A stretch of 64,000 nt of DNA from an uncultured Candidatus Saccharibacteria bacterium. Its GTDB lineage: Bacteria; Patescibacteriota; Minisyncoccia; Phycocordibacterales; PALSA-1337. The translations under genes were made by a program, and so were the position numbers. Below the pieces are notes generated by a model, which was not told the origin of the DNA, did no database searches, and saw nothing but the letters and a program-made list of their open reading frames with translations. Shown here piece after piece: positions 35,699 through 51,739 of this stretch. Each line of letters begins with the position of its first letter. Within the stretch, counting starts at the first letter, position 1. Location: assembly GCA_964529025.1 (NCBI GenBank), contig CAZGUZ010000001.1, forward strand, positions 6,163 to 70,162. Direction: 5' to 3'.

Positions 35699-36403
35699 CT
35701 ATGTTGTACGAAGCTTCTTTACTCTTTCTGCGGCGCGCCACTCATCAATGAGTTTATGATTTCCTGATAAGAGTACCTTAGGAACTCGAAGCTTTTTACC
35801 CTTCCATACTATCACCTCGGGGCGTGTGTATGCACGTGGCGATGATATTCGAGCTTCTTCTCGAGAATCAAAAGAACCAAGCACACCTTTAATTTGGCGT
35901 GCAATAGTGTCGATCGTGAGCATAGCTGGCAATTCTCCGCCAGTTACTACAAAAGGACCAACAGAAACATCTTCCATTTTAAACATGGAATGGAGTCGGG
36001 CATCAATGCCTTCATAGCGACCACACACTAATATAATATCAGTATACTTTTCTGCACTCTGAGCTGCGTATTCGGTAGTTAATTGTGTACCTTGTGGAGC
36101 AAAAAATATAATTTTAAGTCGAGACTTCTTTTTGCGTTTTATAGCTGTTACAGCTTTTGTAAGTGCTCGAGCTACAGGTTCTGCTTGCAACAGCATTCCT
36201 GGGCCACCACCATATGGCTTATCATCTAGTCGATAGTCTGAATACTTTGGCTTTTTCTTACCTTTTGCAGCTTGAGTGAAATCTCGAGGATTATAAAATT
36301 TAACAGCAATCTTTTTTGCCTCAAGGGCACGCTTTAAAATCGACTCATTGAGGTATGAGTCGAAAGATTGTGGAAACAAGCTAATTACGTGAAAAGTGAG
36401 CAT
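35699..36403 (-). CDS. trmD: tRNA (guanine37-N1)-methyltransferase
   Basis: …ISLFPQSF…DDKPYGGGPGMLL… matches TrmD SPOUT motifs. Confidence 0.85.
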   Translation of the reverse strand: MLTFHVISLFPQSFDSYLNESILKRALEAKKIAVKFYNPRDFTQAAKGKKKPKYSDYRLDDKPYGGGPGMLLQAEPVARALTKAVTAIKRKKKSRLKIIFFAPQGTQLTTEYAAQSAEKYTDIILVCGRYEGIDARLHSMFKMEDVSVGPFVVTGGELPAMLTIDTIARQIKGVLGSFDSREEARISSPRAYTRPEVIVWKGKKLRVPKVLLSGNHKLIDEWRAAERVKKLRTT

Positions 36404-36566
36404 ATGAATTTATAAATATATTATACACTAAAAATTTAGCTCTGTACAGAACCATATTTGGGCTTACTTTCGTGCTCGAAGAACGTACTTGCTATATATC
36501 TGATTATATGGTATAAAGATTATGGAAACCCTCGCCCTCTATTGAGGAAACGAGGCATGTAACTTA

Positions 36567-37859
36567 ATGTCAAAAACAAGAAGGAGAAGCGAGTCGATGA
36601 ATGTCGATTTAACTATCAACAAGTGGGCGGGAGTTAGCAGCTTGAAGCCCACAAAGCGACAACTTGGGATACTCCATACCATGCTTACCGAGCTCATCAG
36701 TGAGCTCGTGAAATATGGACTCCCCGCCGAAGGGGGCTACTGGGTGACGCTTGATGCTGGGTCAACGGTTGGTACCAACCAGCACGAATATCGGATCCAG
36801 AAACGTGGCGGGAACGGTAATCGCCCAGGACTTGTGTTCCTACGGGTATGGCTTGAGATGGGCACGTGTTTCGCGGCGTCACTTACACTTCCGGGAAACA
36901 ACAGGCTTGCTACACTCTGCGATGCAGCTGTGCGCAAAAGCCTTGGCACTCACAATCACTTCCAGTTCACCCAAGAGGGCAAACTGGTGCGTGCTGGTGA
37001 CAGTGGCACTGAGGTTCAGCGCTCTGCAAAACCTGCAGAGCCTACTACAGAGCCTGTAGAACCTGTAGCGGCTACTGCGAGCGCACAAGAAAGTGCCGCA
37101 GTGCAACTCGAATCAAGGGTGGAGCCAACTACCCCTGAGCAAACCCAAGCTGGCACGAATACGGCTGAGGGTAGCGGGGCTGCCGAATCGGAAGATTCAG
37201 ACTCCACTGTTGGGTTGAGCAGGTTCTTTGCGGACAACTCAAACCAGGTACTAATCCTCGCACAGCTTGCCGAGCTGTGTATCAAGGACAACACCAAGGA
37301 GGTTACCTTCCCCGATTGGATCAAATCCCTCGAAGAACAGTGGGGATCGAAGTACAAGATCACCTCGGTGGGAGTCCGCCGGGCGATTGCGCGTGAGGGC
37401 CGAAGGATCGGCTGGTTCTCACGGAAGGTTGAGTTTGGAACGACCTGGTACTCAATCACACAGGTTGGGGTGAAAATCCTTTCAGCCGAGCACAGCTATC
37501 GCGATCTCGCTGATAAGTACCGGCAAATTGCCGGATATACTTCGAATGATCCGGTGGCGCCAGCGACGAACGATCCGTTGGCACAGCTGGCCAGCAAGCA
37601 CGCCGAGTATGTCACTTCCGAAAGGGAGTTGCATGAACTCAGGACCGAACTGGCCGAGTCGGTGGAAATCCTGACGAACTTGCGGGAAACCGTGAGTCGC
37701 CTCGACAGAGAGCTCCGGGCTGCTAAAGCCTTGCTGCGGGAGTCCGAGGCTGACACTGTCACCGAGGACGATGTCGCGGCGGCAGAGCGAAAGCTCGCCG
37801 AACTGCGCCCGGCAGAAGAGCAGTATCAACGAGTTGTTGCGCTACTTGCTCTTCGCTGA
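36567..37859 (+). CDS. Hypothetical 430-aa protein in a strongly GC-rich island (about 57% GC by eye); acidic/Pro-Thr linker, winged-helix-like region, C-terminal coiled coil
   Basis: The base-composition contrast with flanking trmD and khpA is clear. The gene has its own strong terminator. No family was recognised. Confidence 0.45.
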   Translation: MSKTRRRSESMNVDLTINKWAGVSSLKPTKRQLGILHTMLTELISELVKYGLPAEGGYWVTLDAGSTVGTNQHEYRIQKRGGNGNRPGLVFLRVWLEMGTCFAASLTLPGNNRLATLCDAAVRKSLGTHNHFQFTQEGKLVRAGDSGTEVQRSAKPAEPTTEPVEPVAATASAQESAAVQLESRVEPTTPEQTQAGTNTAEGSGAAESEDSDSTVGLSRFFADNSNQVLILAQLAELCIKDNTKEVTFPDWIKSLEEQWGSKYKITSVGVRRAIAREGRRIGWFSRKVEFGTTWYSITQVGVKILSAEHSYRDLADKYRQIAGYTSNDPVAPATNDPLAQLASKHAEYVTSERELHELRTELAESVEILTNLRETVSRLDRELRAAKALLRESEADTVTEDDVAAAERKLAELRPAEEQYQRVVALLALR

Positions 37860-37873
37860 CAAGGAAAAACAAA

Positions 37874-37908
37874 CCGCCGAGACACGAATGTCTCGGCGGC
37901 CTTTTTTA
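37874..37908 (+). terminator. Rho-independent terminator of the GC-rich island gene
   Basis: CCGCCGAGACA-cgaa-TGTCTCGGCGG stem followed by CCTTTTTTATT. Confidence 0.7.
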
Positions 37909-37951
37909 TTGCTATTCTTTTATCCACACACACCCTTCTACTCTCTTTGTA

Positions 37952-38272
37952 TTATTCAAGCTTGAGATCAGCCATTGCTTCGTCGAGTGTTTTACTTACT
38001 CGCTCGCCTGCAACGCTTCCTGCTGGTTCGTTAATCTTAAGATTAACTCGAGAATTATTCTTCATTCCCACAACTCGCAAAAGTGTTCGAATTGCTTTTG
38101 CTGTGTTTCCTGAGCGGCCAATTACTTTACCCATATCGTCTGGATGAACTTCGAGTGTAAGAAGCACTCCCATTTCATCGACAGTTCGAACGATCTTTAC
38201 CCCTTCTGGGTTATCAACGAGTGCCTTAATAACGTAGTCTAAAAACTGTGTATCTTTCTCTGTTGTTGTCAT
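37952..38272 (-). CDS. khpA: KH-domain RNA-binding protein (KhpA/YlqC, UPF0109)
   Basis: …VIGRSGNTAKAIRTLL… GxxG KH motif. The gene is small and classically sits after rpsP. Confidence 0.7.
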   Translation of the reverse strand: MTTTEKDTQFLDYVIKALVDNPEGVKIVRTVDEMGVLLTLEVHPDDMGKVIGRSGNTAKAIRTLLRVVGMKNNSRVNLKINEPAGSVAGERVSKTLDEAMADLKLE

Positions 38273-38398
38273 ATTTGTGAAATTAACGGAAAATTATTCG
38301 GAACACGTTGCTACAATTGTAACGTGGTAGGTTTGTGAGTCAAACAAGTTATACACACTGTGTACGTGCTTAATTGAACTCACGTGTATAGTGTAGGA

Positions 38399-38740
38399 CT
38401 AAGCCTGAACTGGAGCTGCGGCTGGAGCGGCTGCAGGAGCAGCATCACCCTCTTTCTTTTGAACTGTCTTTTTTGGAAGAGCGTTCACTTTCTTTCCTGT
38501 AAGCACCTTCTTTTCGATAAGGAAATTGTGAACCGTATCAGAGAGCTGAGCACCCTTTGCCATCCAAGCTTTGATTGCTTCTACATTGAAAGCATCAACA
38601 GCATTGTCGATACGTGAATCGTATGATCCAAGTACTTCTAAAAATCGTCCGCTTTTAGGTCCGTTCTTTGAATCTGTAAGCACCAAGCGAAACTTGGGTT
38701 CGTGCTTACGTCCTACTCGTTGCAATCTAATCTTTAACAT
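38399..38740 (-). CDS. rpsP: 30S ribosomal protein S16 with an Ala/Pro-rich C-terminal extension
   Basis: MLKIRLQRVGRKHEPKFRLV… is a canonical S16 N-terminus. Confidence 0.85.
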   Translation of the reverse strand: MLKIRLQRVGRKHEPKFRLVLTDSKNGPKSGRFLEVLGSYDSRIDNAVDAFNVEAIKAWMAKGAQLSDTVHNFLIEKKVLTGKKVNALPKKTVQKKEGDAAPAAAPAAAPVQA

Positions 38741-38875
38741 GGGATAGATAATAACAGAACTCTAGAAAAATGCAAGCACCTGCACCGTTTTAGCTTAAAA
38801 GTGAGCTTGGGGGTTGAAATAACAAAAGAAAACCGCCCTACTTACTCAGCAGAGCGGCTGCAAGTGATGCCTGGA

Positions 38876-39481
38876 CTATGCAAGCCCGGACACCACCTTT
38901 TGTTCATGACTCACACCGGCGCCGCCCCCTACAGGAATAAGGTCGAAGCCGAAGTCAGCCTCGATCACTTGCGCCAGTCGCAAGGAATCATTGAGACCCT
39001 TGAAACCGAGACGAGCTGTTGGCAATGAGGTAATTACCGGCATACCATGCTCAACATGCGCCCTCAAGCCAAGCTTGAGTGATTCGAAATCCCTCGGCCA
39101 CTCGCCGTCACCGAAGACTTCTTTGCACCGCTTGGCAATACGGAACCAGCGATGCGAGTTTGCGAACGGAGTGAATACAGGGATCACGAAAAGTGAACTC
39201 ACTGGCCACATCGAGAGAAAGCCGGCAATGGCACCGAATCCCAGCGCCATATTAACCGCACCACACATGCGTGCAATGTAATAAACTGCAACAGCCAGGC
39301 TGATGCACATCACCACAGGACCGATAATACCTGCCCAGATGAGCCAAACCGAGGGTGGCTTGCGAAATCTTGCAACTCCGCAAGGCGCAAGAACCTCCCC
39401 GATTGTTGCATCTGCCTTCTTGCACAATTCAACTTCTTCTGTTGTCATACAGTAACCAAATAAATGTTCCAACATCAACAC
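38876..39481 (-). CDS. Hypothetical integral membrane protein in a GC-rich island
   Basis: Three or four hydrophobic helices. GC is about 55% by eye. Alternative starts are at 39475 or 39448. No family was recognised. Confidence 0.4.
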   Translation of the reverse strand: MLMLEHLFGYCMTTEEVELCKKADATIGEVLAPCGVARFRKPPSVWLIWAGIIGPVVMCISLAVAVYYIARMCGAVNMALGFGAIAGFLSMWPVSSLFVIPVFTPFANSHRWFRIAKRCKEVFGDGEWPRDFESLKLGLRAHVEHGMPVITSLPTARLGFKGLNDSLRLAQVIEADFGFDLIPVGGGAGVSHEQKVVSGLA

Positions 39482-39615
39482 GGATACACAATATATACGC
39501 GTTGTTACTAAAAATTAGGATACTACATAATATTAACTGTGTCAATAATTATAGCCCCTCGCTCAACTGCATCGCTCTGGCGAATCACCTAACATATGCT
39601 ATAGTAACCCTACAT

Positions 39616-41634
39616 ATGAACACTCATTCTTCGCCTCAACCGGCAGCTGCACACAACAATTCTCACCAACGTCAAACACCTTCTAACCCAACACTCATTC
39701 AAGGAATCATCACAACAACCCGCAAAGGAATGGGCTTTGTTGATAATCCAGCCGATGCAGAAAACGATATCGTAATCGAGGCCGGCAACCTTAACACCGC
39801 TCTTCATGGTGACCTTGTACAAGTATCACTTTTTCCTAAGCGCAAAAGCGGCAATAAAGATTTTGAGCAAACCGGTGAAGTCATTAAAATCTTAGAGCGA
39901 GCTCGCACAGAATTTGTAGGCACAGTTGAATCTGAACGCGGTCTTGTTTTTGTTACCCCTGACGAAAGAAAATCGTATACCGATTTTGTTGTTCCTGCAG
40001 ATAAAACTCTTGGGGCAGTTAACGGAGACAAGGTTGTTGTTAAACTTATTTCATGGACTGATGCAAAAAAGAGTCCTCAAGGAGAAATAGTTCGTGTCAT
40101 TGGTAAAAAAGGAATTAACGATGTAGAGATGGAGGCTATCGTGCTTGAAAGTGGTTTTGATACTCGCTACCCCGCCCCCGTTATCGAAGAAGCCGAGAAG
40201 CTTGCTCAAACACAGATTCCAATTCCTCAGAACGAAATTGCTCGTCGCCGTGATATGCGCAATGTTCTTACTGTAACTATTGACCCTATCGACGCCAAAG
40301 ACTTTGACGATGCAATTTCTTTTGTTGAGACAGGCACAAAAACATCTGACGGTTTAGATATTTACGAGATTGGCGTGCATATTGCCGATGTTTCGCACTA
40401 TGTACAAGAAGGCACAGCTCTTGATGAAGAAGCACAAGCTCGAGGCTGCTCTATTTATCTTGTTGACCGAACTATTCCTATGCTACCTGAGGTTCTTTCA
40501 AACGGTCTCTGTAGTCTTAATCCTCATGAAGACAAGCTTACTTTCTCTGCAGTTTTTATGATGGATATTCGTGGTCGTGTTCATGATCGCTGGTTTGGTC
40601 GCACTGTAATCAATTCAAATCGCCGCTTTACCTATGAAGAAGCTCAAGAATGTCTCGAAACCAAAGCTGGTGATTTCGCCAAAGAATTAATTACCCTTAA
40701 TACCATTGCCAAAGAACTCCAAAAAGAGAAATTTAATAAAGGAGCAATCGAATTTGAGCAAGATGAAATTAAGTTCAAGCTTGATGAAACTGGAAAGCCA
40801 ATTGGTGTATACAAAAAAGTACGTAAAGATGCTCATAAGCTTGTCGAAGAATACATGCTTCTTGCAAACCGCGAAGTAGCAAAATTTATTTACTCAGAGA
40901 TCAAGCGTAAAGGTCATAAAGACACTGGCTCAATTTATCGAATCCACGATGTTCCCGACAAGGATCGCATTGCTGATCTGGGAATTTTTGTGCGCGCTCT
41001 TGGCTACAGCCTCAATACTGATAAAGAAATTACTGCCCACGACCTCAAAAAACTCCTTAAGCAAATTGAAGGAACTCAGCATGAAGATCTTATTCGAACA
41101 GCAACAATTCGATCAATGCAAAAAGCTATCTATTCAACCAAAAATATTGGGCACTTTGGTCTAGCTTTTGATTATTACACACACTTCACTTCGCCAATTC
41201 GTCGTTACCCTGACCTTCTTGTACAGAGAATTCTTCATAAGCATCTTGCTGGCGAACCTTTCGGCGATCGTGATGCAGTTCGCTTTGAAAGTATTGCTCA
41301 AAAATCAACACGACGCGAAATCGACGCAGCGGACGCAGAGCGAACATCAATCAAGCTCAAGCAAGTTGAGTTTATGGCGCAGCACATTGGTAAAAAATTT
41401 ACCGGTACCATTTCTGGTGTTACTGAATGGGGTATTTACATTGAAGATGTCGACACTCGTTGCGAAGGAATGGTAAAGATCCGTGATCTTGGTGATGATT
41501 TCTATGAGTTCAATAAAAAGACCTATTCAATTACTGGCAAGAAATCAGGCAAAAAGTATACCTTGGGTGATAAAGTAACCTACACCGTTGTAGCCGCAAA
41601 CCTCGAAACTCGCACACTGGATTATAAAATATAA
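39616..41634 (+). CDS. rnr: Ribonuclease R (RNB-family 3'-5' exoribonuclease with a C-terminal S1 domain)
   Basis: RNB catalytic motifs (…IDPIDAKDFDDAIS…), a cold-shock-like N-terminus and an S1 C-terminus. The start is taken at the ATG at 39616; the upstream ORF-track extension overlaps an opposing gene. Confidence 0.85.
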   Translation: MNTHSSPQPAAAHNNSHQRQTPSNPTLIQGIITTTRKGMGFVDNPADAENDIVIEAGNLNTALHGDLVQVSLFPKRKSGNKDFEQTGEVIKILERARTEFVGTVESERGLVFVTPDERKSYTDFVVPADKTLGAVNGDKVVVKLISWTDAKKSPQGEIVRVIGKKGINDVEMEAIVLESGFDTRYPAPVIEEAEKLAQTQIPIPQNEIARRRDMRNVLTVTIDPIDAKDFDDAISFVETGTKTSDGLDIYEIGVHIADVSHYVQEGTALDEEAQARGCSIYLVDRTIPMLPEVLSNGLCSLNPHEDKLTFSAVFMMDIRGRVHDRWFGRTVINSNRRFTYEEAQECLETKAGDFAKELITLNTIAKELQKEKFNKGAIEFEQDEIKFKLDETGKPIGVYKKVRKDAHKLVEEYMLLANREVAKFIYSEIKRKGHKDTGSIYRIHDVPDKDRIADLGIFVRALGYSLNTDKEITAHDLKKLLKQIEGTQHEDLIRTATIRSMQKAIYSTKNIGHFGLAFDYYTHFTSPIRRYPDLLVQRILHKHLAGEPFGDRDAVRFESIAQKSTRREIDAADAERTSIKLKQVEFMAQHIGKKFTGTISGVTEWGIYIEDVDTRCEGMVKIRDLGDDFYEFNKKTYSITGKKSGKKYTLGDKVTYTVVAANLETRTLDYKI

Positions 41635-41654
41635 AAACACCCGGCTTAGTTGTT

Positions 41655-41765
41655 GTAGTTTTACATAACAAAATACTATTTGTATGAAAGGGCTAGTAAA
41701 GGCACGCAGGTGCCTTTACTCGAAGATAATTTCAACCATGAAATTATCTGTACCTTATATACAAA
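41655..41765. repeat. Nested inverted-repeat structure in a convergent intergenic region: perfect 19-bp inverted repeat (41655..41673 / 41747..41765) enclosing two further hairpins
   Basis: AACAAAATACTATTTGTAT and its exact reverse complement, 73 nt apart. Inner hairpins are GTAAAGGCAC-gcag-GTGCCTTTAC and GATAATTTC-aaccat-GAAATTATC. Confidence 0.55.
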
Positions 41766-41780
41766 TAGTATTTTGTTTTG

Positions 41781-44048
41781 CTATTTAGCCACCCTTACCG
41801 CTTCATCAAACTGAATCGAAAGAAGTTTAGAACCACCATCATTCCCCATTGTCACACCGTAAAGAATACCTGCTCGAGACATAGTTTCGCGATTATGCGT
41901 AATTACAATAAGCTGCGAGAGCTGGGATAGGCTTTCTACCATATCGCCATACTTGCGTGAATTTGCTTCATCGAGCGCTGCATCTGTTTCATCAAGAATA
42001 ATAAATGGTGGAGGATTTACTTGTGACAAAGCAAAGAGCAGTGCTATAGAGGTAAGCGCTCGCTCCCCACCTGAGAGCATCATAAGACCCTTAACCTTTT
42101 TGCGAGGCAAAGAAACTGAAATATCAATTCCTTGCGGACCTTGTGCATCTTCTGCTGCATCGCTCTCGGGAATATTTTCTGAACCTGCATCGAGTAATTC
42201 TTTAAGGGCAGATTTTGAACGCTTTGTTGGCTGTACGAGCGTAAGTGATGCTGCTCCGCCGCCAAACATCATAGTAAAGAAATGTTGGAATTGGGTATTT
42301 ATCTTAAGGAGGCCATCCGTAAATTCAAGGTTAAGGCGAGCATCAAGATCAGCAATAATATGCTCGAGTGAAATGCGTGCTTTTTCAAGATCGGTAATTT
42401 CACGCAATAAAAAGGCATCGCGCTCTTCAGTGTCTTTATGTTCTTTAAGAATTTCGCTTGTTCCGCCAACACCAGCGTCTTCGAGGCGAATCTTAAGGCG
42501 CTCCAAAGCCTTCTTTCTATCTTCTTGTACAGAGCGAGGTTCACTCATAATTAAGCTCGTGTCGATAGCTACACTTTCATAATCAATTGCGTCTCGGCCA
42601 CCTAGAACATATGCTTCTTTGAGCTCATTTGCAAAAGCATCTTTTTCTTGAAGAACTCTTTGTTCGCGCGCTTTAAGGGTAGCAAGAATTGTGCGGACTT
42701 CATTAAGTTCGGCCATATACTTAAATACATTCTTTTCGGCTTCACGGTTCGAATCTTTTTCTTTTTCTATTGCCTGCTGAACATCGCGATACCGTGCTTC
42801 GGCAGTAATTTGTCGCTCTTTAATTTCTTGCGTATGAGATTCGAGCTCGCTACGTTTTTTCATATAGCTATCAACTTCTTTCTCGGCATCTGCAATGCGC
42901 GAAGTGTCAATTTTTTCTGAATGTTCTTCGACAAAACTTGTAACAGCACCATGAACATGTTTAAGAGCACCCTCAAAAGATTCAAGGGTGCGATTCTTAA
43001 GAGCGGCATCAATTGCTTGGTGAATAGAACGAACAACATTGCGAACATCAGCCATGCGCACAGTACGAGTATCATCGTGTCGCATACGTTCGCGTTCTTT
43101 ATCGATACTGCGTTTAAGTGCCTCGATTTCGCCATCGAGCTTTCCTGCTTCGCGCATTACCATATCATGCTTCATGCGCAAATCGTGTAGATCTTTTTCT
43201 ACTGCAATGAGTTCATCGCTTTTAACATCGCGCCTTTCCATATGCTCAAGTTGTGAGCGAGCTTGGTCAAGCTTTTTAATGAGCTCAGCTTCTTGGTGCT
43301 GTGGTTGTTTGAGTTCTTCGCGAACATGATTAAGCGACTCGTTAATATAAACGTCTTCGCGCTTTAAGTACTCTTTCATGCGACTGCGGAATTCTTGGCG
43401 CAATTCTTCTGTCTTATGAATCTTCTCTACTTGCTTGGCCAAAAACTTAAGGTGTGGAGCGATTTCCCTGCGTAATGACTCTACCTCTTTCATATTACTC
43501 AAAGTTTTTTCGAGCTTCTTCTGACTTTCGAGTTTTTTGTATTGGTAAACACGAAGCCCTAAAGCATCTTCAATCATTTGTCGGCGCTCGTGGATATTTG
43601 ATGACAAAATTCTATCAGCTTCACCTTGTGAAATTATGTGGTGGCCAGAAGAACCAATGTGTGCCCCAGCTAAAAGCTCTACAATATCCTTAAGGCGAAC
43701 AGCACTGCCATTTAAAAAATATTCATTTGAATTATCACGATGAACAACGCGCTCAATTACAACCTCATCAAAATCAAGAGCAAGTTTGCGTGACGTATTA
43801 TCAAAAACTAATTTTACAGAAGCGCGATTAACTCGTGAACCATCACTGCCGGTAAAGATAAGGTCTTCGCCGCGTTTTCCACGCATTGATTTTACCGATT
43901 GCTCACCCAAAGCAAATCTAAAAGCTTCGGCAACATTTGATTTTCCCGAACCATTAGGACCAACAATAGCAGAAATCGGCGCCGAAAATTTGAGCGACGC
44001 TTTTTTGGCAAAAGATTTAAAGCCTGAGATTTCGAGCTCTTTAAGCAT
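41781..44048 (-). CDS. smc: SMC-family chromosome condensation ATPase (short, 755 aa)
   Basis: N-terminal Walker A GPNGSGKSN, a long coiled coil, and a C-terminal signature LSGGER plus Walker B ILDETDAALD. Confidence 0.7.
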   Translation of the reverse strand: MLKELEISGFKSFAKKASLKFSAPISAIVGPNGSGKSNVAEAFRFALGEQSVKSMRGKRGEDLIFTGSDGSRVNRASVKLVFDNTSRKLALDFDEVVIERVVHRDNSNEYFLNGSAVRLKDIVELLAGAHIGSSGHHIISQGEADRILSSNIHERRQMIEDALGLRVYQYKKLESQKKLEKTLSNMKEVESLRREIAPHLKFLAKQVEKIHKTEELRQEFRSRMKEYLKREDVYINESLNHVREELKQPQHQEAELIKKLDQARSQLEHMERRDVKSDELIAVEKDLHDLRMKHDMVMREAGKLDGEIEALKRSIDKERERMRHDDTRTVRMADVRNVVRSIHQAIDAALKNRTLESFEGALKHVHGAVTSFVEEHSEKIDTSRIADAEKEVDSYMKKRSELESHTQEIKERQITAEARYRDVQQAIEKEKDSNREAEKNVFKYMAELNEVRTILATLKAREQRVLQEKDAFANELKEAYVLGGRDAIDYESVAIDTSLIMSEPRSVQEDRKKALERLKIRLEDAGVGGTSEILKEHKDTEERDAFLLREITDLEKARISLEHIIADLDARLNLEFTDGLLKINTQFQHFFTMMFGGGAASLTLVQPTKRSKSALKELLDAGSENIPESDAAEDAQGPQGIDISVSLPRKKVKGLMMLSGGERALTSIALLFALSQVNPPPFIILDETDAALDEANSRKYGDMVESLSQLSQLIVITHNRETMSRAGILYGVTMGNDGGSKLLSIQFDEAVRVAK

Positions 44049-44083
44049 GGATATATTGTACCATGTGTATTAAACACCTACCC

Positions 44084-44833
44084 CTACCACGCTTTCACTT
44101 CGAGTGCTTTTTCTGCAGCTTTTTGCTCTGCTTCTTGTTTTGACATTCCTGAACCTGTAGCCACCTGAACATCACCTAAAAATACACCGAGGGTAAACTG
44201 CTTATTATGATCAGGTCCCATTTCTTTGAGAGTTCTATATGATGGTGTTATTCCCGTCATTTCTTGAGCCTTTTCTTGGAATCGGCTCTTTGCATCGAGC
44301 CAGAGCTTCTTTTTAATAATGGTGTCGATATCGATATATGAAAGAATAAACTTTTCAATAAAGTTACCTGCTCCACCAAAACCCTGATCAAGATATATTG
44401 CTCCAATAACTGCTTCTACTGCATCAGCAAGGATAATTGAGCGTGCTCGGCCTTGGTCTTTTGCTTCGCCTCGCGACAAAAGCATATAGTTATTAATACC
44501 AATATGCTGTGCCACCTTAGACAAACTTACGGTATTAACAAGGGCAGAACGATATGCAGTTAAATCGCCCTCTGCTCTGTCGGGAAACTTTTGATACAAA
44601 AAGATTGTAACTACAAGTTCCAGCACTGCATCTCCTAAAAATTCAAGGCGTTCATTGTGCACTAAACGAGCACCGCGATTTTCATTGAGATATGAGCGGT
44701 GTGTACAAGCAGTCTTAAGCAAATCGAGCGACTTAAAATGAACGCCGAGCTTTGTTGCTAATGCTTCGAAATCAGGCATATGTCCTCGCGGACCTCGAGC
44801 ACCCCGTGATTTTTTTTCTCCTCCTGTTGCCAT
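44084..44833 (-). CDS. rnc: Ribonuclease III
   Basis: ERLEFLGDAVLEL catalytic signature plus a C-terminal dsRBD. Confidence 0.85.
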   Translation of the reverse strand: MATGGEKKSRGARGPRGHMPDFEALATKLGVHFKSLDLLKTACTHRSYLNENRGARLVHNERLEFLGDAVLELVVTIFLYQKFPDRAEGDLTAYRSALVNTVSLSKVAQHIGINNYMLLSRGEAKDQGRARSIILADAVEAVIGAIYLDQGFGGAGNFIEKFILSYIDIDTIIKKKLWLDAKSRFQEKAQEMTGITPSYRTLKEMGPDHNKQFTLGVFLGDVQVATGSGMSKQEAEQKAAEKALEVKAW

Positions 44834-44844
44834 ATATACTTATA

Positions 44845-45756
44845 TTATTTCTTCCCTTCTACGTGCTTTGAAACAAGCATAATTGCTTTAGTAACAATAG
44901 GAAGAATATCGTTATAAAAATTTAATTCGAGAATGTCCGAAAGCTTAAACCAGCGTGCATCATCAAGACCGCCACTTGTACCCAGAGTAATTGGATCGAA
45001 GAAAGATTCTGCTAAAAAGTAGTGAACCTGTTTTCGAATCTTACCTTTTTCTGGATCTGAGGCTACATATTCATTACTTCCCAAATCTTCTTTAATGGTA
45101 ATATCAAGGCCCATTTCTTCTTTAATTTCGCGAATGGTTCCTGTGCGAACATCTTCTTCTGCTTCGATTTTTCCTTTCGATAGAGTCCAGTGGCCAAATA
45201 TATCATGAACAAGGGCTAAGTATGTTTCGCCTTGGTGTTGCGCATATACCACTGCTCCGCCGAGTTTTTGAATTGGCATTTGCTCAAAAGGAACATCTTT
45301 TGGACGCTTCTTTTTTGGTTCAGCATCTTTACCAGGTTCACCGAGTTCTTTATACACAGATCCCAAGACTCCGTTAACAAACTTTCCACTGTTTTCTCCG
45401 CCGAAAGTTTTTGCAAGCTCAATAGCTTCGTTAATTGCAACTTTTGCTGGCACTTCGTTGCGGTCTGAGAATAGAAGTTCGTAAAGACCGATACGAAGAA
45501 TATTTCTGTCTGAAATTGAAATCTTATCGATGGGCCATTCAGGGGCAGCTTTTTCAATTACAGCGTCGAGATCTTTGCGCTTAGCAGCAATACCCTGTGT
45601 AAGGGTTTCCATAAATGAAAGATCGCCCATACCAGGAGCAAATTCCTCGGCATTACGGGCGATGCTTTCTTTGAGTACTTCAAGTGAATAACCTCTAAAA
45701 TCCCACTCGAAAAGTGTTTGCATTACTATCGATCGAGAAAGATGTCTATTGGCCAT
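44845..45756 (-). CDS. nusB: NusB antitermination factor fused to a C-terminal NUDIX hydrolase domain
   Basis: The N-terminal roughly 140 aa match NusB (…VPAKVAINEAIELAKTFGGENSGKFVNGVLGSV…). The C-terminus carries a canonical NUDIX box GKIEAEEDVRTGTIREIKEEMGL (Gx5Ex7REUxEExGU). Confidence 0.7.
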   Translation of the reverse strand: MANRHLSRSIVMQTLFEWDFRGYSLEVLKESIARNAEEFAPGMGDLSFMETLTQGIAAKRKDLDAVIEKAAPEWPIDKISISDRNILRIGLYELLFSDRNEVPAKVAINEAIELAKTFGGENSGKFVNGVLGSVYKELGEPGKDAEPKKKRPKDVPFEQMPIQKLGGAVVYAQHQGETYLALVHDIFGHWTLSKGKIEAEEDVRTGTIREIKEEMGLDITIKEDLGSNEYVASDPEKGKIRKQVHYFLAESFFDPITLGTSGGLDDARWFKLSDILELNFYNDILPIVTKAIMLVSKHVEGKK

Positions 45757-45806
45757 TTTTTTGAAGAACTACTGCATTTAAACTTTATAATACTGTAAGT
45801 GTATCG

Positions 45807-45992
45807 CTACTCGGCTTTTGAGGCAATGTCGAGAACCTTGCGACCTCGGTACATGCCTGTTTTGAGGCAGACGTGGTGTCGAAGATGTGCTACACCAGTG
45901 TCTTTGGCAACAGTTGTACGTGTTGCATCTAAAGCATGATGTGAGCGTCGATTGTCCCGGTGTGCCCGGTTAGCACGCATTCTGTTTACCAT
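45807..45992 (-). CDS. rpmB: 50S ribosomal protein L28 (tentative)
   Basis: 61 aa, basic. …DNRRSHHALDATRTT…HLRHHV…GRKV… resembles the L28 …GNNRSHALNATKRRF…NL…RV… pattern. Confidence 0.45.
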   Translation of the reverse strand: MVNRMRANRAHRDNRRSHHALDATRTTVAKDTGVAHLRHHVCLKTGMYRGRKVLDIASKAE

Positions 45993-46154
45993 AGTGATGC
46001 TATATTACATCATTTTGTATGAATGTGCAAGCACTTAAATAAGTTAACTGCGAGTATCAAAATAAACCAGGCTTTTGCTAAAAATATACAAAAGAAAGAG
46101 CCAGCGTCCGGTTAAGAAACGCTGGCTTTTTGTGCCGCCCCGTAGGGGCGGTTG

Positions 46155-46979
46155 TTATTTCGGTGGTTGCGGAGTTGTCTTGATTCTACGTCTAACAACA
46201 TATTCCGCAGCGTGGGTTGGGTCGCCAGCAAGATCTTTGAACTCCGGTTGACTCAGAAGCCCTTCGTATTCTTGTGCAACTCTACCCGTTGTCTCAAGGC
46301 GTGACAGTAGTCGTAGTGTTTGTAGCACCGCGACTGTGTGTGCCACTGGCCCGTGGCAGGACTGCATTTGACCAACAAGCTTTCCTGCCTCAACCCAATT
46401 TGGCGGCTGAAGTTCTTCTGATCGCCTGGTTCCTCGATCAGAATCAGTAATAACTTGTTTTCGTAGCGATGAATCGATTCTTGGTGTCGCCACGAATGCA
46501 AAAACATTCTTTTGATGGAGCGAAGCGCCTAATGCGCTTACGTCAGCCTTAACGCACCACGATATGATCGGGGTGAGTTCAGAACTTACTGACCCAAGAT
46601 CTTCTGAACTCGCATCAATAGGGTGCAGTAATTCTACGAAAACCACACCCTGAACAAATACCTCAGTCTCGAGGCACCGAGTGACCACTGCAGCCGGATC
46701 TTCGGGCTTCTCCAAATTCAGATCCGCAGCCGACTTTCCAGACTCTGATGGTAATTGGATTCTGGTCCTCTTAGACCAGCCCATTCTCGATTCCGAGACG
46801 AAAGCGAGCACTTCTACTCGCCCTTCGTTTGTAATCCTCACAATGCAGCAAATTGCTGCTGACGAGGAGACTTTCGATGGGGGCGCGCCATCATTTGATG
46901 CATTCGCCCCCTCGTTCGGTGTCATATTACTCTTTCTAATCCGCCGAAGCAGATTGGGGGTTATGTCAGATTTCTCCAA
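46155..46979 (-). CDS. Hypothetical 274-aa protein in a GC-rich island
   Basis: GC is about 53% by eye. The gene is flanked 3' by tandem hairpins. No family was confidently recognised. Confidence 0.4.
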   Translation of the reverse strand: MEKSDITPNLLRRIRKSNMTPNEGANASNDGAPPSKVSSSAAICCIVRITNEGRVEVLAFVSESRMGWSKRTRIQLPSESGKSAADLNLEKPEDPAAVVTRCLETEVFVQGVVFVELLHPIDASSEDLGSVSSELTPIISWCVKADVSALGASLHQKNVFAFVATPRIDSSLRKQVITDSDRGTRRSEELQPPNWVEAGKLVGQMQSCHGPVAHTVAVLQTLRLLSRLETTGRVAQEYEGLLSQPEFKDLAGDPTHAAEYVVRRRIKTTPQPPK

Positions 46980-47032
46980 CAGATTGCATCTGTACAGAAA
47001 ATAACACGACTTGCTTTATGAGTCAAGTATTT

Positions 47033-47674
47033 TTAAGACACTAACTTAATGTTGCCATTGAGCCTTTTAAGGAACGTAATTCTGTGAATTTTTGACATGC
47101 CATGCTTGTCTAAAGCAGCGTAGTGCATTCGAGTTCCATAGCCTTTGTGAATTTCAAAACTATACTGTGGATACTTGCGTGCACTACGAATCATATATGT
47201 ATCGCGATGCACTTTTGCAGCAATAGAAGCAAGAGCTATGCTCATAAAACGAGCATCGCCTTTAATATAGGTATTCTGCGAGGTAAATTCTTTTGGAGCA
47301 TATAAGCCGCCGTCGAGTTGTATGTGAACAGTGTCTTTATGCACTCGGGCCTTTTGTATCACTTTTAACAAAGAGCTTTTAAGTGCTTTTTTAATTGCCG
47401 GATTAATACCGTGCGTATCAATATACTGCGAGGAAACCATCGTAGTAGAAAATGCAATGATTCCCTCTTGCTCTGCATTGAGCATATAGGCAAGCCATTC
47501 TTTTCTTTGAGGCTCTGTTAATTGCTTTGATTCGCGCACACTCTTAAAAAGCTTATTCGCCCGCCGGCTATTGTGTATCAAGCATGCACCGACACATACC
47601 GGCCCGGCTATTGGCCCGCGGCCGACTTCATCAATACCAATGATGTACCGAAGTTTCTTTGATACATGTCTCAT
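47033..47674 (-). CDS. rnhB: Ribonuclease HII
   Basis: IIGIDEVGRGPIAGPV… is a canonical RNase HII N-terminus. The start is set at the internal Met at 47674 to avoid overlap with the divergent dnaE; the ORF track extends to 47755. Confidence 0.8.
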   Translation of the reverse strand: MRHVSKKLRYIIGIDEVGRGPIAGPVCVGACLIHNSRRANKLFKSVRESKQLTEPQRKEWLAYMLNAEQEGIIAFSTTMVSSQYIDTHGINPAIKKALKSSLLKVIQKARVHKDTVHIQLDGGLYAPKEFTSQNTYIKGDARFMSIALASIAAKVHRDTYMIRSARKYPQYSFEIHKGYGTRMHYAALDKHGMSKIHRITFLKRLNGNIKLVS

Positions 47675-47719
47675 AGAGCGTAGTATCACATATATGTATA
47701 AATTTGCTATACTACGCAT

Positions 47720-50700
47720 ATGTCCCGATTCGTTCATCTCCACACTCACAGTCACTACTCACTCCTTAATGCCCTGCCAAAAATCGACGATCTTGTTGAT
47801 GAAGCAAAGAAGTATGGCATGAAATCTTTGGCATTAACTGATGCCGGTAACATGTATGGTGCCATTGAATTTTACAAACAATGCACTAAAAAAGAGATTA
47901 AACCAATTATTGGTGTCGATGCCTATGTTGCAGCGCGAACACGTAAAGATATGCAGGCAGGAGTCGACAGCCGCCGTACCCGACTTGTTCTTTTGGCAAA
48001 AGATTTTACGGGGTATCAAAATCTTATTAAACTTGTTACATTTTCTCACACTGAAGGCTTTTACTATAAACCACGTATCGACCGTGAACTGATTTCAAAG
48101 TATCACGAAGGCCTTATTTGTATTGCTCCATCATTTTCAAGTGAAATATCTCAAGCTCTTAAATCACGCGATATAGAAAAAGCAAAAGAAATCATAAGCT
48201 TCTATAAAGAAAACTTTGGTGCAGACTTTTACCTAGAAATTACTCGTCACCCCGAAATTGATGGGCATGAAGCACTCATGAATCAGCTCATTAAGCTTGG
48301 GCACGAAACATCAACCCCTCTTATGGCAGCGCACGATGTGTACTATTTGCATCCGGAGGACAGAGTGGCTCGAGATACACTCATGCTCGTAAATACAGCT
48401 GGTGGCGACGCTGCAGCAGAACGCCTCAATGATAGCGATGAAGAAGATTTTTCTTTTATTTCTCCGGAACGAGCCGAGGAGCTCTTTGCAGATATACCCG
48501 AAGCTCTCGACAATACCGCAAAAATTGCCGAATCATGCAACCTTAAACTTGAATTGGCAAAGTGGACATTCCCTAACTACATTGTTGAAAGCGGTCTTTC
48601 ATACGACGATGAATTGCGCCGCATTGCTTATGAGGGAATTCCAAAACGAGGCCTTAAAGTAGACGACCCTGAAGTTGTTAACCGACTTGAATACGAACTT
48701 AAGGTTATTAAAGATAAAGGATATGCTCAGTACTTTCTCGTAGTGTCAGATCTTTTGCGCTATGCACATGAAAATGGCATCCTTACCAACATTCGAGGTT
48801 CGGTTGCTGGTTCCCTTACAACGTATGTAACTCACATTACGAATGTAGACCCTCTTGAATACCGCTTACCGTTCGAGCGTTTCCTTAACCCGCAACGACC
48901 TTCTGCTCCCGATATCGACATGGACTATGCCGATAACCGTCGCGACGAGGTTATTGGCTATGCCCGACAAAAATATGGTCATGATAAAGTGGCGCAGATC
49001 GGAACCTTTGGTACCATGATGGCCCGTGGTGCTGTTCGCGACGTAGCTCGCGCTATGGGTTACCCCTATGACCTTGGCGACAAAATATCAAAAATGATAC
49101 CGATGGGCGCACAGGGCTTTCCCATGACTATTGATCGCGCCCTCGAAGAAGTTCCCGAGCTCAAAGAGCTCTACACCAAAGAAGCCGATGTGCAAAGAAT
49201 TATCGATATGGCAAAAAAGATCGAAGGTTGTGCCCGACACATTTCGGTGCACGCGGCCGGCGTCGTAATTGCCCCTCGACCACTTGATGAATATGTACCT
49301 CTTCAGTACGACCCAAAAGGAGAAGGAAAAATTATTACCCAGTACGACATGCACGGTGTGGGTGAAGATGGCGTTGGTCTTCTCAAGTTCGACTTCCTTG
49401 GAATTAAAAACCTTTCGATTCTTGCTGATGCAGTTGACCGCGTTAAAAAAATCGAGAACATTGATGTCGACATCGAAAATATTCCCCTTAATGATCCTAA
49501 AACATTCGCAATGCTTGCCCGCGGTGAGACGGTAGGCCTTTTCCAGCTCAACGGTACAGGTATGACTCGATTCTTGGTCGAGCTTAAGCCTTCAACAATT
49601 CACGACATTAACGCTATGGTGGCTTTGTACCGACCGGGACCGCTCGAAATGATCCCTGTCTACATTGAGCGAAAACACGATCATTCAAAGATTGAATATA
49701 TTGACCCTCGCCTCAAAAATATTATTGAGCGATCTTTCGGAGTTATCACCTATCAGGACGACGTTATGATGATTGCCATCGAGCTTGCTGGATATTCTTG
49801 GCTCGAAGCCGACAAGCTCCGCAAAGCCATGGGAAAGAAAATTCCCAAAGAAATGGAAGAACAAAAAGGGAAGCTCCTTGATGGTCTTGTAAAAAACGGT
49901 ATGACAGCGTCGAAGGCAAAAAAACTCTGGGAACTTATCGAGCCATTCGCTTCGTACGGTTTCAATAAAGCACACGCTGCAAGTTATGGCCGCGTTGCCT
50001 ATCAAACGGCATACATGAAAGCCAATTTCCCTGCTATTTACATGTCAGCCGTACTCACCGCAGACTCAGGCGATGTAGAAAAGATTGCCGAAATCATTGC
50101 TGAATGTAAGCGTATGCAAATTCCTATTTTGCCGCCTGACATTAATGAAAGTTATAGTCAATTTACCGTGATTAAAGGCAAGGATGGTGAACCAGATCGC
50201 ATCCGTTTCGGACTCGTTACTATTAAAAACTTTGGCCAGAATATCGCCACATCAATTATTGATGAGCGTAAGCGTGGCGGACACTTTACATCACTTATTA
50301 ATTTCCTTGATCGAGTTCAGGATAGAAACCTCAATAAAAAATCACTTGAAGCACTCATAAAGGCTGGCGCCCTTGATAACTTTGGTCATGAGCGAGGCAC
50401 CTTACTTGGAAACATCGAAAATCTTTTGGCCTACAATAAAGAGCACGAAAAGCGCCCCACAAATCAAGACTCTCTTTTTGGCCTTATGTCCGACACATCA
50501 TCACTACCCACACTTAAGCTTGAACCTGCTCCAGCAATTCACCCACGCCAGCGCTTAGCTTGGGAAAAGGAATTACTTGGTTTGTATGTCTCTGGTCACC
50601 CTCTCGACCAATACCGCGAAGCAATTGAAAAGAGCGGTATGAATATAGCCAAAGCAAAAGAGACACTTAAAGATGGTGCCGAAGCAACATTTGCTTGCAC

Positions 50701-50920
50701 CATTGAAGAAGCAAAGCAAATTGCAACCAAAAAAGGCGACCTTATGGCCTTTCTTAAAGTTGCCGATTTTACAGGTTCGCTCGAAGCTGTAGTTTTTCCT
50801 AAGACACTTGCAACTTATCGTACCCTCCTTAATCCTGACGCTTGCATTGCACTTAAAGGAAAGATGTCTGAGCGCAATGGCCAAAAGAGTATTATTATCG
50901 ACAAAATTAAGGTGCTTTAA
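47720..50920 (+). CDS. dnaE: DNA polymerase III alpha subunit
   Basis: N-terminal PHP domain (FVHLHTHSHYSLL), polymerase core, and OB-fold C-terminus. Length is 1066 aa. Confidence 0.9.
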   Translation: MSRFVHLHTHSHYSLLNALPKIDDLVDEAKKYGMKSLALTDAGNMYGAIEFYKQCTKKEIKPIIGVDAYVAARTRKDMQAGVDSRRTRLVLLAKDFTGYQNLIKLVTFSHTEGFYYKPRIDRELISKYHEGLICIAPSFSSEISQALKSRDIEKAKEIISFYKENFGADFYLEITRHPEIDGHEALMNQLIKLGHETSTPLMAAHDVYYLHPEDRVARDTLMLVNTAGGDAAAERLNDSDEEDFSFISPERAEELFADIPEALDNTAKIAESCNLKLELAKWTFPNYIVESGLSYDDELRRIAYEGIPKRGLKVDDPEVVNRLEYELKVIKDKGYAQYFLVVSDLLRYAHENGILTNIRGSVAGSLTTYVTHITNVDPLEYRLPFERFLNPQRPSAPDIDMDYADNRRDEVIGYARQKYGHDKVAQIGTFGTMMARGAVRDVARAMGYPYDLGDKISKMIPMGAQGFPMTIDRALEEVPELKELYTKEADVQRIIDMAKKIEGCARHISVHAAGVVIAPRPLDEYVPLQYDPKGEGKIITQYDMHGVGEDGVGLLKFDFLGIKNLSILADAVDRVKKIENIDVDIENIPLNDPKTFAMLARGETVGLFQLNGTGMTRFLVELKPSTIHDINAMVALYRPGPLEMIPVYIERKHDHSKIEYIDPRLKNIIERSFGVITYQDDVMMIAIELAGYSWLEADKLRKAMGKKIPKEMEEQKGKLLDGLVKNGMTASKAKKLWELIEPFASYGFNKAHAASYGRVAYQTAYMKANFPAIYMSAVLTADSGDVEKIAEIIAECKRMQIPILPPDINESYSQFTVIKGKDGEPDRIRFGLVTIKNFGQNIATSIIDERKRGGHFTSLINFLDRVQDRNLNKKSLEALIKAGALDNFGHERGTLLGNIENLLAYNKEHEKRPTNQDSLFGLMSDTSSLPTLKLEPAPAIHPRQRLAWEKELLGLYVSGHPLDQYREAIEKSGMNIAKAKETLKDGAEATFACTIEEAKQIATKKGDLMAFLKVADFTGSLEAVVFPKTLATYRTLLNPDACIALKGKMSERNGQKSIIIDKIKVL

Positions 50921-50977: not shown

Positions 50978-51739
50978 TCAACCCCCAACCCTCTCTAGGT
51001 GACCAATGCGACCCTCGTGTGATTGCCACATTTTGATAATAAAATCCGTTTGAACAGCGAGCTCGGCTCGAGTGGGTAAATTTTTAATATCATCTTTTGT
51101 TGCGAATTGCTTAAGATCTTCCTTAGTTGCACACAACTTAAGATCTTCTTTGGTGGCGAATCTTTCAAGATCTTTCTTTGTTGCAAACTTTTCGAGATCC
51201 TTTTTTATCGCAAACAAATTTGAGTCTACCTTAGTAGCTAAATTCTTTGCATCATCTTTGGTGAACATGTTTTTAGCCACAAGTTCCGCAAGAGCATTTA
51301 CCGAGGTATCCGTATGTTCTATCAATTCTCTTTTGAGATCGTGAATGTATTGTGGTACATGATTTTCATTATGATCAATTAATTCCTTCTTGAGATCATT
51401 AATGTACTGTGGTATATGGTTCTCTGTGTGGTCAATTAACTCTTTTTTAAGGTCGTGAATATATTGAGGTATGTGATTTTCGGTATGTTCCATTAACTCC
51501 CTTTTGAGGTCATGGATGTACTGTGGAATATGATTTTCAGTGTGGTCAATTAATTCCTTCTTGAGATCGTGAATATATTGAGGTATGTGATTTTCAGTAC
51601 GGTCAATTAACTCTTTCTGAAGATCATGAATGTACTGTGGCACATGATTTTCGGTATGTTCAATTAACTCCCTTTTGAGGTCGTGGATGTACTGTGGTAC
51701 ATGCTCTTTCGCACTATTTTGAAAGGAATTTTGCGACAT
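50978..51739 (-). CDS. Tandem-repeat protein: 7 × 20-aa repeat (ENHIPQYIHDLKKELIDHT) followed by about 9-aa (K/E)DL(K/E)xFATK repeats; C-terminal DUF1640-like coiled-coil flavour
   Basis: The periodicity is visible directly in both protein and DNA. There is no signal peptide. Confidence 0.6.
   Translation of the reverse strand: MSQNSFQNSAKEHVPQYIHDLKRELIEHTENHVPQYIHDLQKELIDRTENHIPQYIHDLKKELIDHTENHIPQYIHDLKRELMEHTENHIPQYIHDLKKELIDHTENHIPQYINDLKKELIDHNENHVPQYIHDLKRELIEHTDTSVNALAELVAKNMFTKDDAKNLATKVDSNLFAIKKDLEKFATKKDLERFATKEDLKLCATKEDLKQFATKDDIKNLPTRAELAVQTDFIIKMWQSHEGRIGHLERVGG
51293..51709. repeat. About 7 tandem copies of a 60-bp coding repeat (diverged, not identical)
   Basis: The recurrent unit …tcaattaa(c/t)tc(c/t)ttt…ga(g/a)(g/a)tc(g/a)tg(g/a)at(g/a)ta(c/t)t(g)tgg(t/c)a(t/c)atg(a/g)ttttc… has a 60-nt period. 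Confidence 0.7.

Follow-up and report, generated by a model that had tools for sequence, protein, structure and literature searches.

NusB is among the most uniform of bacterial transcription factors, the canonical protein being a single domain of about 140 amino acids. The gene described here, which lies on the minus strand of a 64-kb stretch of contig CAZGUZ010000001.1 (this whole stretch is hereafter the window), encodes instead a NusB of 303 residues, extended by a linker and a second, C-terminal domain of about 140 residues that belongs to the Nudix family. For the NusB part, the closest structural guide is the Aquifex NusB-NusE-BoxA complex, in which BoxA follows a path from the NusB N-terminus to helix α7 and a pocket at the NusB-NusE interface, with F122 (in α7) stacking on U8, E81 reading U8 and K118 contacting the next phosphate (PMC3177189). 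In the Escherichia coli rRNA transcription antitermination complex (rrnTAC), SuhB, a separate accessory, is needed for stable NusB/E integration and contacts the RNA immediately 3′ to boxA, close to the RNase III site, RNase III itself processing the leader-spacer duplex of rRNA (PMC6614801).

For the Nudix part, the closest described proteins are hydrolases of diadenosine tetraphosphate (Ap4A), in which the His, Trp and Lys of an H-W-x3-K-G motif bind the P1 phosphate, while a Tyr or Phe some 17 residues past the box and a second aromatic close to the C-terminal helix stack on adenine (PMC4734340, PMC2425470). Some Nudix enzymes of this kind act on RNA: NUDT2 hydrolyses both Ap4A and 5′-triphosphorylated RNA (pppRNA), E. 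coli RppH binds Ap4A-type caps in its active site, and both act on pppRNA and on dinucleoside tetraphosphate (Np4N) caps (PMC9283932). Others bind without catalysis, as in the case of CF Im25, a Nudix protein that lacks two of the glutamates, binds Ap4A or ATP without hydrolysing either, and works within an RNA-processing complex (PMC2425470).

A sequence-only reading of the window had taken the gene for a fusion of NusB with a Nudix hydrolase, quoting two conserved NusB blocks and a perfect Nudix box, and in these respects it proved correct. The Pfam NusB and NUDIX families each score above their gathering thresholds within the single 303-residue open reading frame (ORF); the quoted blocks are present at residues 106-116 (VAINEAIELAK) and 125-132 (KFVNGVLG); and the box, GKIEAEEDVRTGTIREIKEEMGL, matches the signature GX5EX7REUXEEXGU at all defined positions. 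The parts of the gene are as follows.

44845..45756, minus strand: complete nusB-Nudix coding sequence, one unbroken ORF of 303 amino acids plus stop, with the start MANRHLSRS
45343..45756, minus strand: NusB domain, residues 1-138, seven helices (assigned by PF01029, TIGR01951 and the helices of an AlphaFold2 (AF2) model compared with Mycobacterium tuberculosis and Aquifex NusB)
45274..45342, minus strand: linker, residues 139-161, with a conserved GEPGKD, then a variable Lys-rich part, then a conserved P-x-E-x-MP before the Nudix sheet
44848..45273, minus strand: Nudix domain, residues 162-303, of the hydrolase type acting on Ap4A and other diadenosine polyphosphates (ApnA), assigned by PF00293, Foldseek and sequence alignments
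45106..45174, minus strand: Nudix box GKIEAEEDVRTGTIREIKEEMGL, residues 195-217, read from the sequence and canonical here

The AF2 model of the protein comprises the seven NusB helices and an α/β/α Nudix domain, with a mean predicted local distance difference test score (pLDDT) of 84. The linker (GEPGKDAEPKKKRPKD...) is predicted to be disordered, residues 140-151 having pLDDT values below 50, and G139-K143, P156 and M160 within it are invariant in close homologs. In public annotation these proteins are plain NusB, and the second domain is hidden.

The N-terminal half resembles the NusB proteins of E. coli, Aquifex and M. tuberculosis in its equivalog score, all-helical fold, N-terminal Arg motif and residues for U8 of BoxA. 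The PF01029 match spans residues 7-136 (E 9.3e-35; 120.3 bits against a cut-off of 23.1) and the NCBIfam nusB equivalog, TIGR01951, is passed with 125.1 bits against 88.35. The helices are modelled at pLDDT values of around 85-95, and Foldseek matches them to the M. tuberculosis and Aquifex structures (1eyv and 3r2d; target template modelling (TM) scores of 0.84-0.87). At the putative RNA-contacting positions, F126 aligns with the BoxA-stacking F122 (Aquifex and E. coli numbering) and is invariant in 56 diverse fusions. In that same set D83, an Asp in place of Aquifex E81, is at least 90% conserved, as are both R4 and R8 of the N-terminal basic motif. Judged by these predicted residues, the NusB half looks functional, with a putative capacity for BoxA and S10 binding and for antitermination. 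The Nudix domain starts some 20 residues past α7 and, in the geometry that we infer, would lie near S10 and the 3′ side of BoxA.

Searched with family profiles, the window gives a single NusB and a single Nudix domain, and 80 related loci totalling 863 kb have exactly one NusB apiece. In sister lineages of the candidate phyla radiation, a stand-alone NusB of 140-147 residues fills the same genomic slot, between rpmF and rnc. By position, the fused gene is thus orthologous to the resident nusB and has gained the Nudix domain at its 3′ side; it is the organism's own nusB. The rpmF-nusB-rnc arrangement differs from the context in E. coli, where the order is ribE-nusB-thiL.

The sequence-only reading had named an error at the junction as the thing to look for and a phylogenetic survey as a further check. 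Apparent stand-alone Nudix matches (P0224 and P0229) did at first hint at split genes, as expected if sequencing or assembly had joined separate nusB and Nudix genes. That explanation is now as good as ruled out, its probability being next to nil, since the ORF is continuous, without internal stop or frameshift, in all 80 independent species-level assemblies (ORFs of 296-333 residues), 120 listed protein clusters are about 300 residues long, and at least 584 genomes carry the fusion. The two apparent exceptions were also rejected as stand-alone or split genes. P0224 is a fusion cut short where its contig ends, the tail of NusB still being visible upstream, and P0229 (L084, a contig of 601 bp) is probably a chimeric assembly, its composition shifting abruptly from AT-rich to GC-richer; a recombinant gene is the alternative. 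The first 40 or so residues of P0229 resemble a generic MutT-type N-terminus, while the remainder is 62% identical to the fused domain and is followed by rnc.

The survey showed the fusion to be clade-wide. A search of 5.8 billion proteins yielded, among the matches listed, 120 clusters of 292-324 residues and 71-98% identity, 108 of which have both Pfam domains in their annotation; those that bear a name are called 'transcription antitermination factor NusB' and come from metagenome-assembled genomes of Patescibacteria, Paceibacterota and Taylorbacteria. A scan in which every GTDB species was represented by one genome confirmed full-length relatives in Paceibacteria/Parcubacteria, where at least 584 of the representative genomes encode one. 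The best 80, on which the locus counts are based, derive from Taylor-, Adler-, Kaiser- and Nomurabacteria and other Parcubacteria, each aligning to query residues 1 to ~297. HMMER, run exhaustively on 1.84 billion representative proteins, gave 155 clusters (E ≤1e-30), of which about 50 were full-length fusions at 32-61% identity. Three of the most divergent fusions, with identities of 31-41%, are likewise found in a nusB-Nudix-rnc locus, two of them with rpmF directly upstream. In the large homolog searches, the best 120-150 matches listed were saturated by this NusB-Nudix family. The fusion is real, ancient and clade-wide in Paceibacteria/Parcubacteria. Full-text literature searches found no published description of a NusB-Nudix fusion; both families are well known and the fusion is a variant of them, not a new category.

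The second domain has the fold and motifs of an Ap4A hydrolase. PF00293 matches residues 177-282 (E 4.9e-12) with 46.5 bits where 21.1 are required, and Foldseek returned more than 500 matches at E <0.001, mostly to Nudix proteins. The best was the Aquifex Ap4A hydrolase (3i7u; TM 0.90, root mean square deviation 1.9), and others included M. tuberculosis Rv2985 (a diadenosine polyphosphatase) and M. smegmatis MutT1. Next came the Caenorhabditis elegans enzyme (1ktg), human NUDT2, Thermus Ndx1 (an Ap6A hydrolase) and Chlamydia CT771. The structures at the head of this search were 3i7u, 9cxx, 1ktg, 1vc8, 4ilq/4mpo and 4ijx, and the ligand-sensing Nudix domain of NrtR (3gz8) and Dcp2 were also among the fold matches. 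Sequence searching led to the same set of ApnA hydrolases, headed by 9cxx, 4ilq, 1kt9 and 1vc8. The H-W-x3-K-G motif is present as GHWTLSKG (residues 188-195), with the spacing of His43, Trp44 and Lys48 in PfAp4AH, and Y281 aligns exactly with the adenine-stacking Y121 of the C. elegans enzyme. Common to the window domain and the Ap4A hydrolases (3i7u, 1ktg, NUDT2, Ndx1, CT771, Rv2985/MutT1) are the fold, the box, the H-W-x3-K-G motif and candidate aromatic residues for both adenine-stacking positions. In contrast, the window Nudix is only 23-27% identical to them and is fused to NusB rather than free-standing, its marker Tyr lies at 13 instead of ~17 residues past the box, and most of its orthologs lack catalytic glutamates.

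The Nudix domain passes none of the curated NCBIfam equivalogs. The best of them, MutT1 (NF052459), scored 28.8 bits against a cut-off of 475, with MutT, NudG, NudI and the rest also far below their cut-offs. The suggestion in the sequence-only reading that the hydrolase might be RppH-like did not survive this comparison: the RppH model, NF001936, reached 19.7 bits against 118 and matched only residues 174-218, which rules out orthology to RppH. Having the ApnA-hydrolase fold and motifs and failing the RppH model, the domain is an ApnA-hydrolase-type Nudix and not an RppH ortholog. RppH (E. coli NudH, Bacillus subtilis YtkD) remains an instructive parallel as a Nudix enzyme of RNA metabolism, analogous to the role proposed below for family members with an intact box. 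RppH, however, is free-standing and not known to be joined to a transcription factor.

Whereas the box of the window protein is perfect, the family as a whole shows recurrent loss of its catalytic residues. Around half of 61 close homologs (71-98% identity) have ...AKVKEE... in place of ...REIKEE..., losing the Glu at the seventh box position. Among the 56 diverse members the full seven-residue signature is kept in 11 and the glutamate of 'RE' in 14, the number of surviving signature residues ranging from 7 down to 1. The 81 species-level genomic copies include 36 with a canonical box and 42 without the 'RE' glutamate. Taking 136 sequences together, the REUXEE triad is intact in 49 and has lost at least one catalytic Glu in 87, the latter including relatives 74-76% identical to the window protein. 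Fitch parsimony gives at least 24 changes of triad state, a rough count obtained on a neighbour-joining tree of the non-box columns of the 136 sequences built without support values. Since the exact Nudix signature is unlikely to re-evolve, we read these changes as many independent losses.

Loss of catalysis is not accompanied by decay of the domain. Across the 81 genomic copies, Nudix domains share on average 64.5% pairwise identity among degenerate and 65.9% among canonical members, the corresponding figures for NusB being 71.1% and 69.4%. The putative ligand-binding positions are retained in Glu-lost members at frequencies of 0.97 (K194), 0.93 (Y230), 0.87 (K242) and 0.97 (Y281), and W190 (0.95-0.97), Y246 (0.97) and W269 (0.97) are kept to a similar degree. 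After the first loss, the box drifts and the remaining domain does not. Lys is the commonest substitute for the lost catalytic Glu (45 of 87) and would put a fixed positive charge at the Mg2+ position. The idea that a basic, generic RNA-binding surface arises after catalytic loss was rejected: the domain stays acidic, and the change in charge is confined to the box. Alignment of the family thus pairs recurrent loss of catalytic residues with retention of the predicted ligand-binding ones. In this respect most orthologs resemble CF Im25 (NUDT21) and the NrtR-type sensors, Nudix domains that bind ligand and have lost glutamates; a dead, ligand-binding Nudix is an apt description of 87 of the 136 orthologs and not of the window protein, which keeps the complete box. 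CF Im25 is, in addition, eukaryotic and homologous at superfamily level only.

These patterns bear on what the fusion is for. The sequence-only reading had proposed a pyrophosphohydrolase tethered to the antitermination complex, and in its fullest form this would be an active RNA 5′-pyrophosphohydrolase or decapping enzyme, functionally RppH-like, whose hydrolytic activity is the reason for the fusion. The perfect box here, in 36 of the 81 species-level relatives and in P0236 and P0246 would agree with that, as would the activity of Ap4A-type Nudix enzymes (RppH, NUDT2) on pppRNA and Np4N caps and the sharing of an operon with rnc. We nevertheless consider it unlikely: catalytic Glu is lost in 87 of 136 sequences through at least 24 changes of state while the domain stays conserved, a broken box decays further when the rest does not, and the RppH equivalog is far from reached (19.7 against 118 bits). 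A tethered hydrolase remains plausible in this genome, with its intact box, but hydrolysis cannot be the conserved purpose of the fusion, given the loss of Glu in the majority and the nearly unchanged constraint on the domain.

The opposite proposal is that the Nudix domain is purely structural and non-catalytic, in the window protein too, making SuhB-like contacts with S10, RNA polymerase, NusA or RNA 3′ of BoxA, with the intact box a relic. It would draw on the family-wide conservation pattern, on attachment at α7 beside the NusE interface, on an acidic surface suited to a basic partner such as S10, and on the precedent of E. coli SuhB, which serves NusB/E integration and binds the boxA-boxC linker. 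Yet the boxes of P0236 and P0246 are perfect although these proteins are only 31-34% identical to the window protein, indicating that catalysis is under selection where the box survives; a 23-residue signature could hardly have stayed perfect down to 31% identity otherwise. The residues that dead members keep, moreover, are those for phosphate and adenine binding, as expected of a site for a small ligand or the 5′ end of an RNA and not of a protein interface. We therefore regard a purely structural role as quite improbable.

A third possibility, to which we attach very little probability, is a housekeeping enzyme for free nucleotides (Ap4A clearance or sanitising of 8-oxo-GTP) that became fused without mechanistic coupling to transcription. 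The nearest relatives in sequence and fold, including mycobacterial MutT1/Rv2985, are indeed ApnA hydrolases of free nucleotides, and one related genome has a stand-alone paralog of the same type (L039:4007-4444). Against this, catalytic loss in such an enzyme should bring decay of the domain, whereas within lineages with a dead box the domain is still ~65% identical, and even deeply diverged members have the fusion at the one locus. The nucleotide-sanitising role offered as an option in the sequence-only reading is likewise not supported: work on a free pool would not account for a fusion kept in one place down to 31% identity.

Some unusual members lie at the margins of the family. The stand-alone paralog just mentioned is a 145-residue Ap4A-hydrolase-type gene on the plus strand, directly after smc, in the Parcubacteria isolate NP996 (PBQF01000047.1), and is the only genuine stand-alone Nudix paralog among the 80 loci. 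Its box is intact (GGHWGLPKGTPDKDE...RRELFEETGI) while that of the fused Nudix in the same genome is dead (GKLEKGENTEEGTKRKIKEKIGL), and it may be a compensating paralog or represent the donor type. Four NusB proteins of 268-345 residues (P0237, P0248, P0262 and P0252) have an extremely K/E/N-rich C-terminal part with a long insertion and only faint traces of the Nudix strands and C-terminal helix (e.g. ...YKNIKNILNKI); they look like what is finally left when the fused domain degenerates in AT-rich genomes. Two further NusB proteins of ~250 residues, P0265 and P0232, end not in Nudix but in long tails of low complexity, rich in Ala, Gly, Asp, Glu and Thr, and cluster close to the fused lineages in the NusB tree.

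The genes that accompany the fusion are arranged as below.

46099..46127, minus strand: terminator-like hairpin upstream of rpmF, with an 11-bp stem and T-rich tail (a consensus match only)
45807..45992, minus strand: rpmF (ribosomal protein L32), 50 nucleotides upstream of nusB-Nudix
44084-44833, minus strand: rnc (RNase III), 11 nucleotides past the nusB-Nudix stop codon, with Pfam Ribonuclease_3 and dsrm
41781..44048, minus strand: smc, downstream of rnc, a conserved context

The position of rnc directly downstream in the same orientation, already pointed out from the sequence, is confirmed by the 11-nucleotide gap, and rnc is immediately 3′ of the fusion in all 80 loci and also in the divergent loci L086-L088. 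By tblastn, rpmF lies upstream in 78 of the 80 and smc follows rnc in most of them; Pfam Ribosomal_L32p is found on the gene preceding nusB in L081-L083, L086 and L087. No terminator-like site was found between nusB-Nudix and rnc, and the two are almost certainly co-transcribed. The hairpin at 46099..46127 is likely the 5′ boundary of an rpmF-nusB-rnc-smc unit.

Our preferred interpretation is of a NusB carrying a tethered nucleoside-5′-polyphosphate-binding module beside BoxA, which in this genome is probably also a hydrolase; as a complete package we consider it evenly poised between right and wrong. An ancient fusion in Paceibacteria/Parcubacteria would have appended an Ap4A-hydrolase-type Nudix to the C-terminus of NusB. 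NusB, together with ribosomal protein S10, would bind BoxA of the rRNA leader, the Nudix domain being held by a flexible linker of ~20 residues to the end of α7, the helix expected to shape the pocket that receives the 3′ end of BoxA where NusB meets S10. The conserved job of the Nudix domain would then be to bind a nucleoside-5′-polyphosphate moiety, most plausibly the 5′-triphosphate or Np4N-capped end of the nascent, BoxA-bearing leader transcript or, alternatively, a free dinucleoside polyphosphate (Ap4A) acting as a regulator. Binding of the 5′ end could provide a second grip or a sensor beside BoxA. In lineages with an intact box (about one third, including this genome) the ligand would probably also be hydrolysed, for example from pppRNA or capped RNA to 5′-monophosphorylated RNA, a product that would suit a pathway of leader processing or clearing in which the co-transcribed RNase III also takes part. 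We infer the nature of the ligand, its hydrolysis and the connection to the rRNA leader from the patterns given above.

A more specific version, which we put forward tentatively and with considerable doubt, has the Nudix domain as a sensor or anchor, built into NusB, for the 5′-triphosphate or Np4N end of the leader or for the alarmone Ap4A. The Paceibacteria complex for rRNA antitermination and maturation would then read the cell's 5′-end or alarmone state and, in some lineages, erase it. It would amount to a fused, SuhB-like subunit coupling BoxA binding, capture of the 5′ end and RNase III processing. The site of SuhB in the E. coli rrnTAC, just 3′ of boxA, is one that a tethered Nudix could reach, although SuhB is a separate polypeptide with a different fold, that of the inositol monophosphatases.

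Several points weigh against the interpretation that we prefer. The predicted TM score of the AF2 model is 0.50, and the model defines no orientation between the NusB and Nudix domains. The ligand assignment draws on residue conservation and analogy. The net charge of the Nudix domain is around -6, with no obvious RNA-binding surface beyond the pocket for the 5′ end. Y230 lies 13 residues past the box where ~17 would be expected, one position off the adenine-stacking C. elegans Y76 across a three-residue indel, where the alignment is uncertain by one position. The well-retained W190, Y246 and W269 could be residues of the fold core and not ligand contacts. The number of catalytic losses depends on a neighbour-joining tree without support values. 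Finally, stand-alone NusB proteins are interspersed among the fused lineages in the NusB-domain tree, itself a weak one, which hints at occasional loss of the whole Nudix domain and at its being perhaps dispensable in some lineages.

The part of the window around the fusion, 35699-47755, is rich in housekeeping genes for RNA, the ribosome and nucleic acids, among them the following, given with the adjoining dnaE.

35699-36403, minus strand: trmD
38399-38740, minus strand: rpsP (ribosomal protein S16)
39355-41634, plus strand: RNase R
47033-47755, minus strand: rnhB (RNase HII)
47720-50920, plus strand: dnaE, divergent from rnhB and overlapping the start of the annotated rnhB ORF by 36 nucleotides

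From this overlap, the true start of rnhB is probably further downstream. Between rnhB and rpmF lies an ORF of 274 residues (46155-46979, minus strand, TTG start), and the terminator-like hairpin (46099-46127, minus strand) follows it. In most related genomes this interval is empty or nearly so, and weak matches (25-29%) occur there only in L013 and L020. The ORF has no Pfam match even at E=10 and no sequence match in the PDB at E values up to 10, and its single-sequence AF2 model is unusable (pLDDT 34.5). As a candidate for a second, degenerate Nudix it was rejected, hhalign giving a probability of 0.4% against the Nudix family profile; it looks like a lineage-specific gene. Positions 36001-40000 have a raised G+C content (0.474, compared with ~0.42 elsewhere), and two ORFs in this block, one of 430 residues (36567-37859, plus strand) and one of 201 residues (38876-39481, minus strand), have no Pfam match at E ≤1e-5. 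A 253-residue ORF at 50978-51739 (minus strand) matches Pfam SERRATE_Ars2_N and DUF1816 over the whole sequence with no individually significant stretch, matches that are probably compositional or due to low complexity and not to homology.

A two-domain NusB throughout a clade means that the uncultivated Paceibacteria have remodelled their machinery for rRNA antitermination and maturation. The family is also a natural experiment in the passage from enzyme to pseudoenzyme, in which intact and dead forms occupy the same locus in close relatives and the ligand residues persist. If the ligand is indeed an RNA 5′ end or Ap4A, the strict coupling to RNase III would be explained, and the fusion would for the first time tie the Nus complex physically to the chemistry of 5′ ends or dinucleotide polyphosphates.

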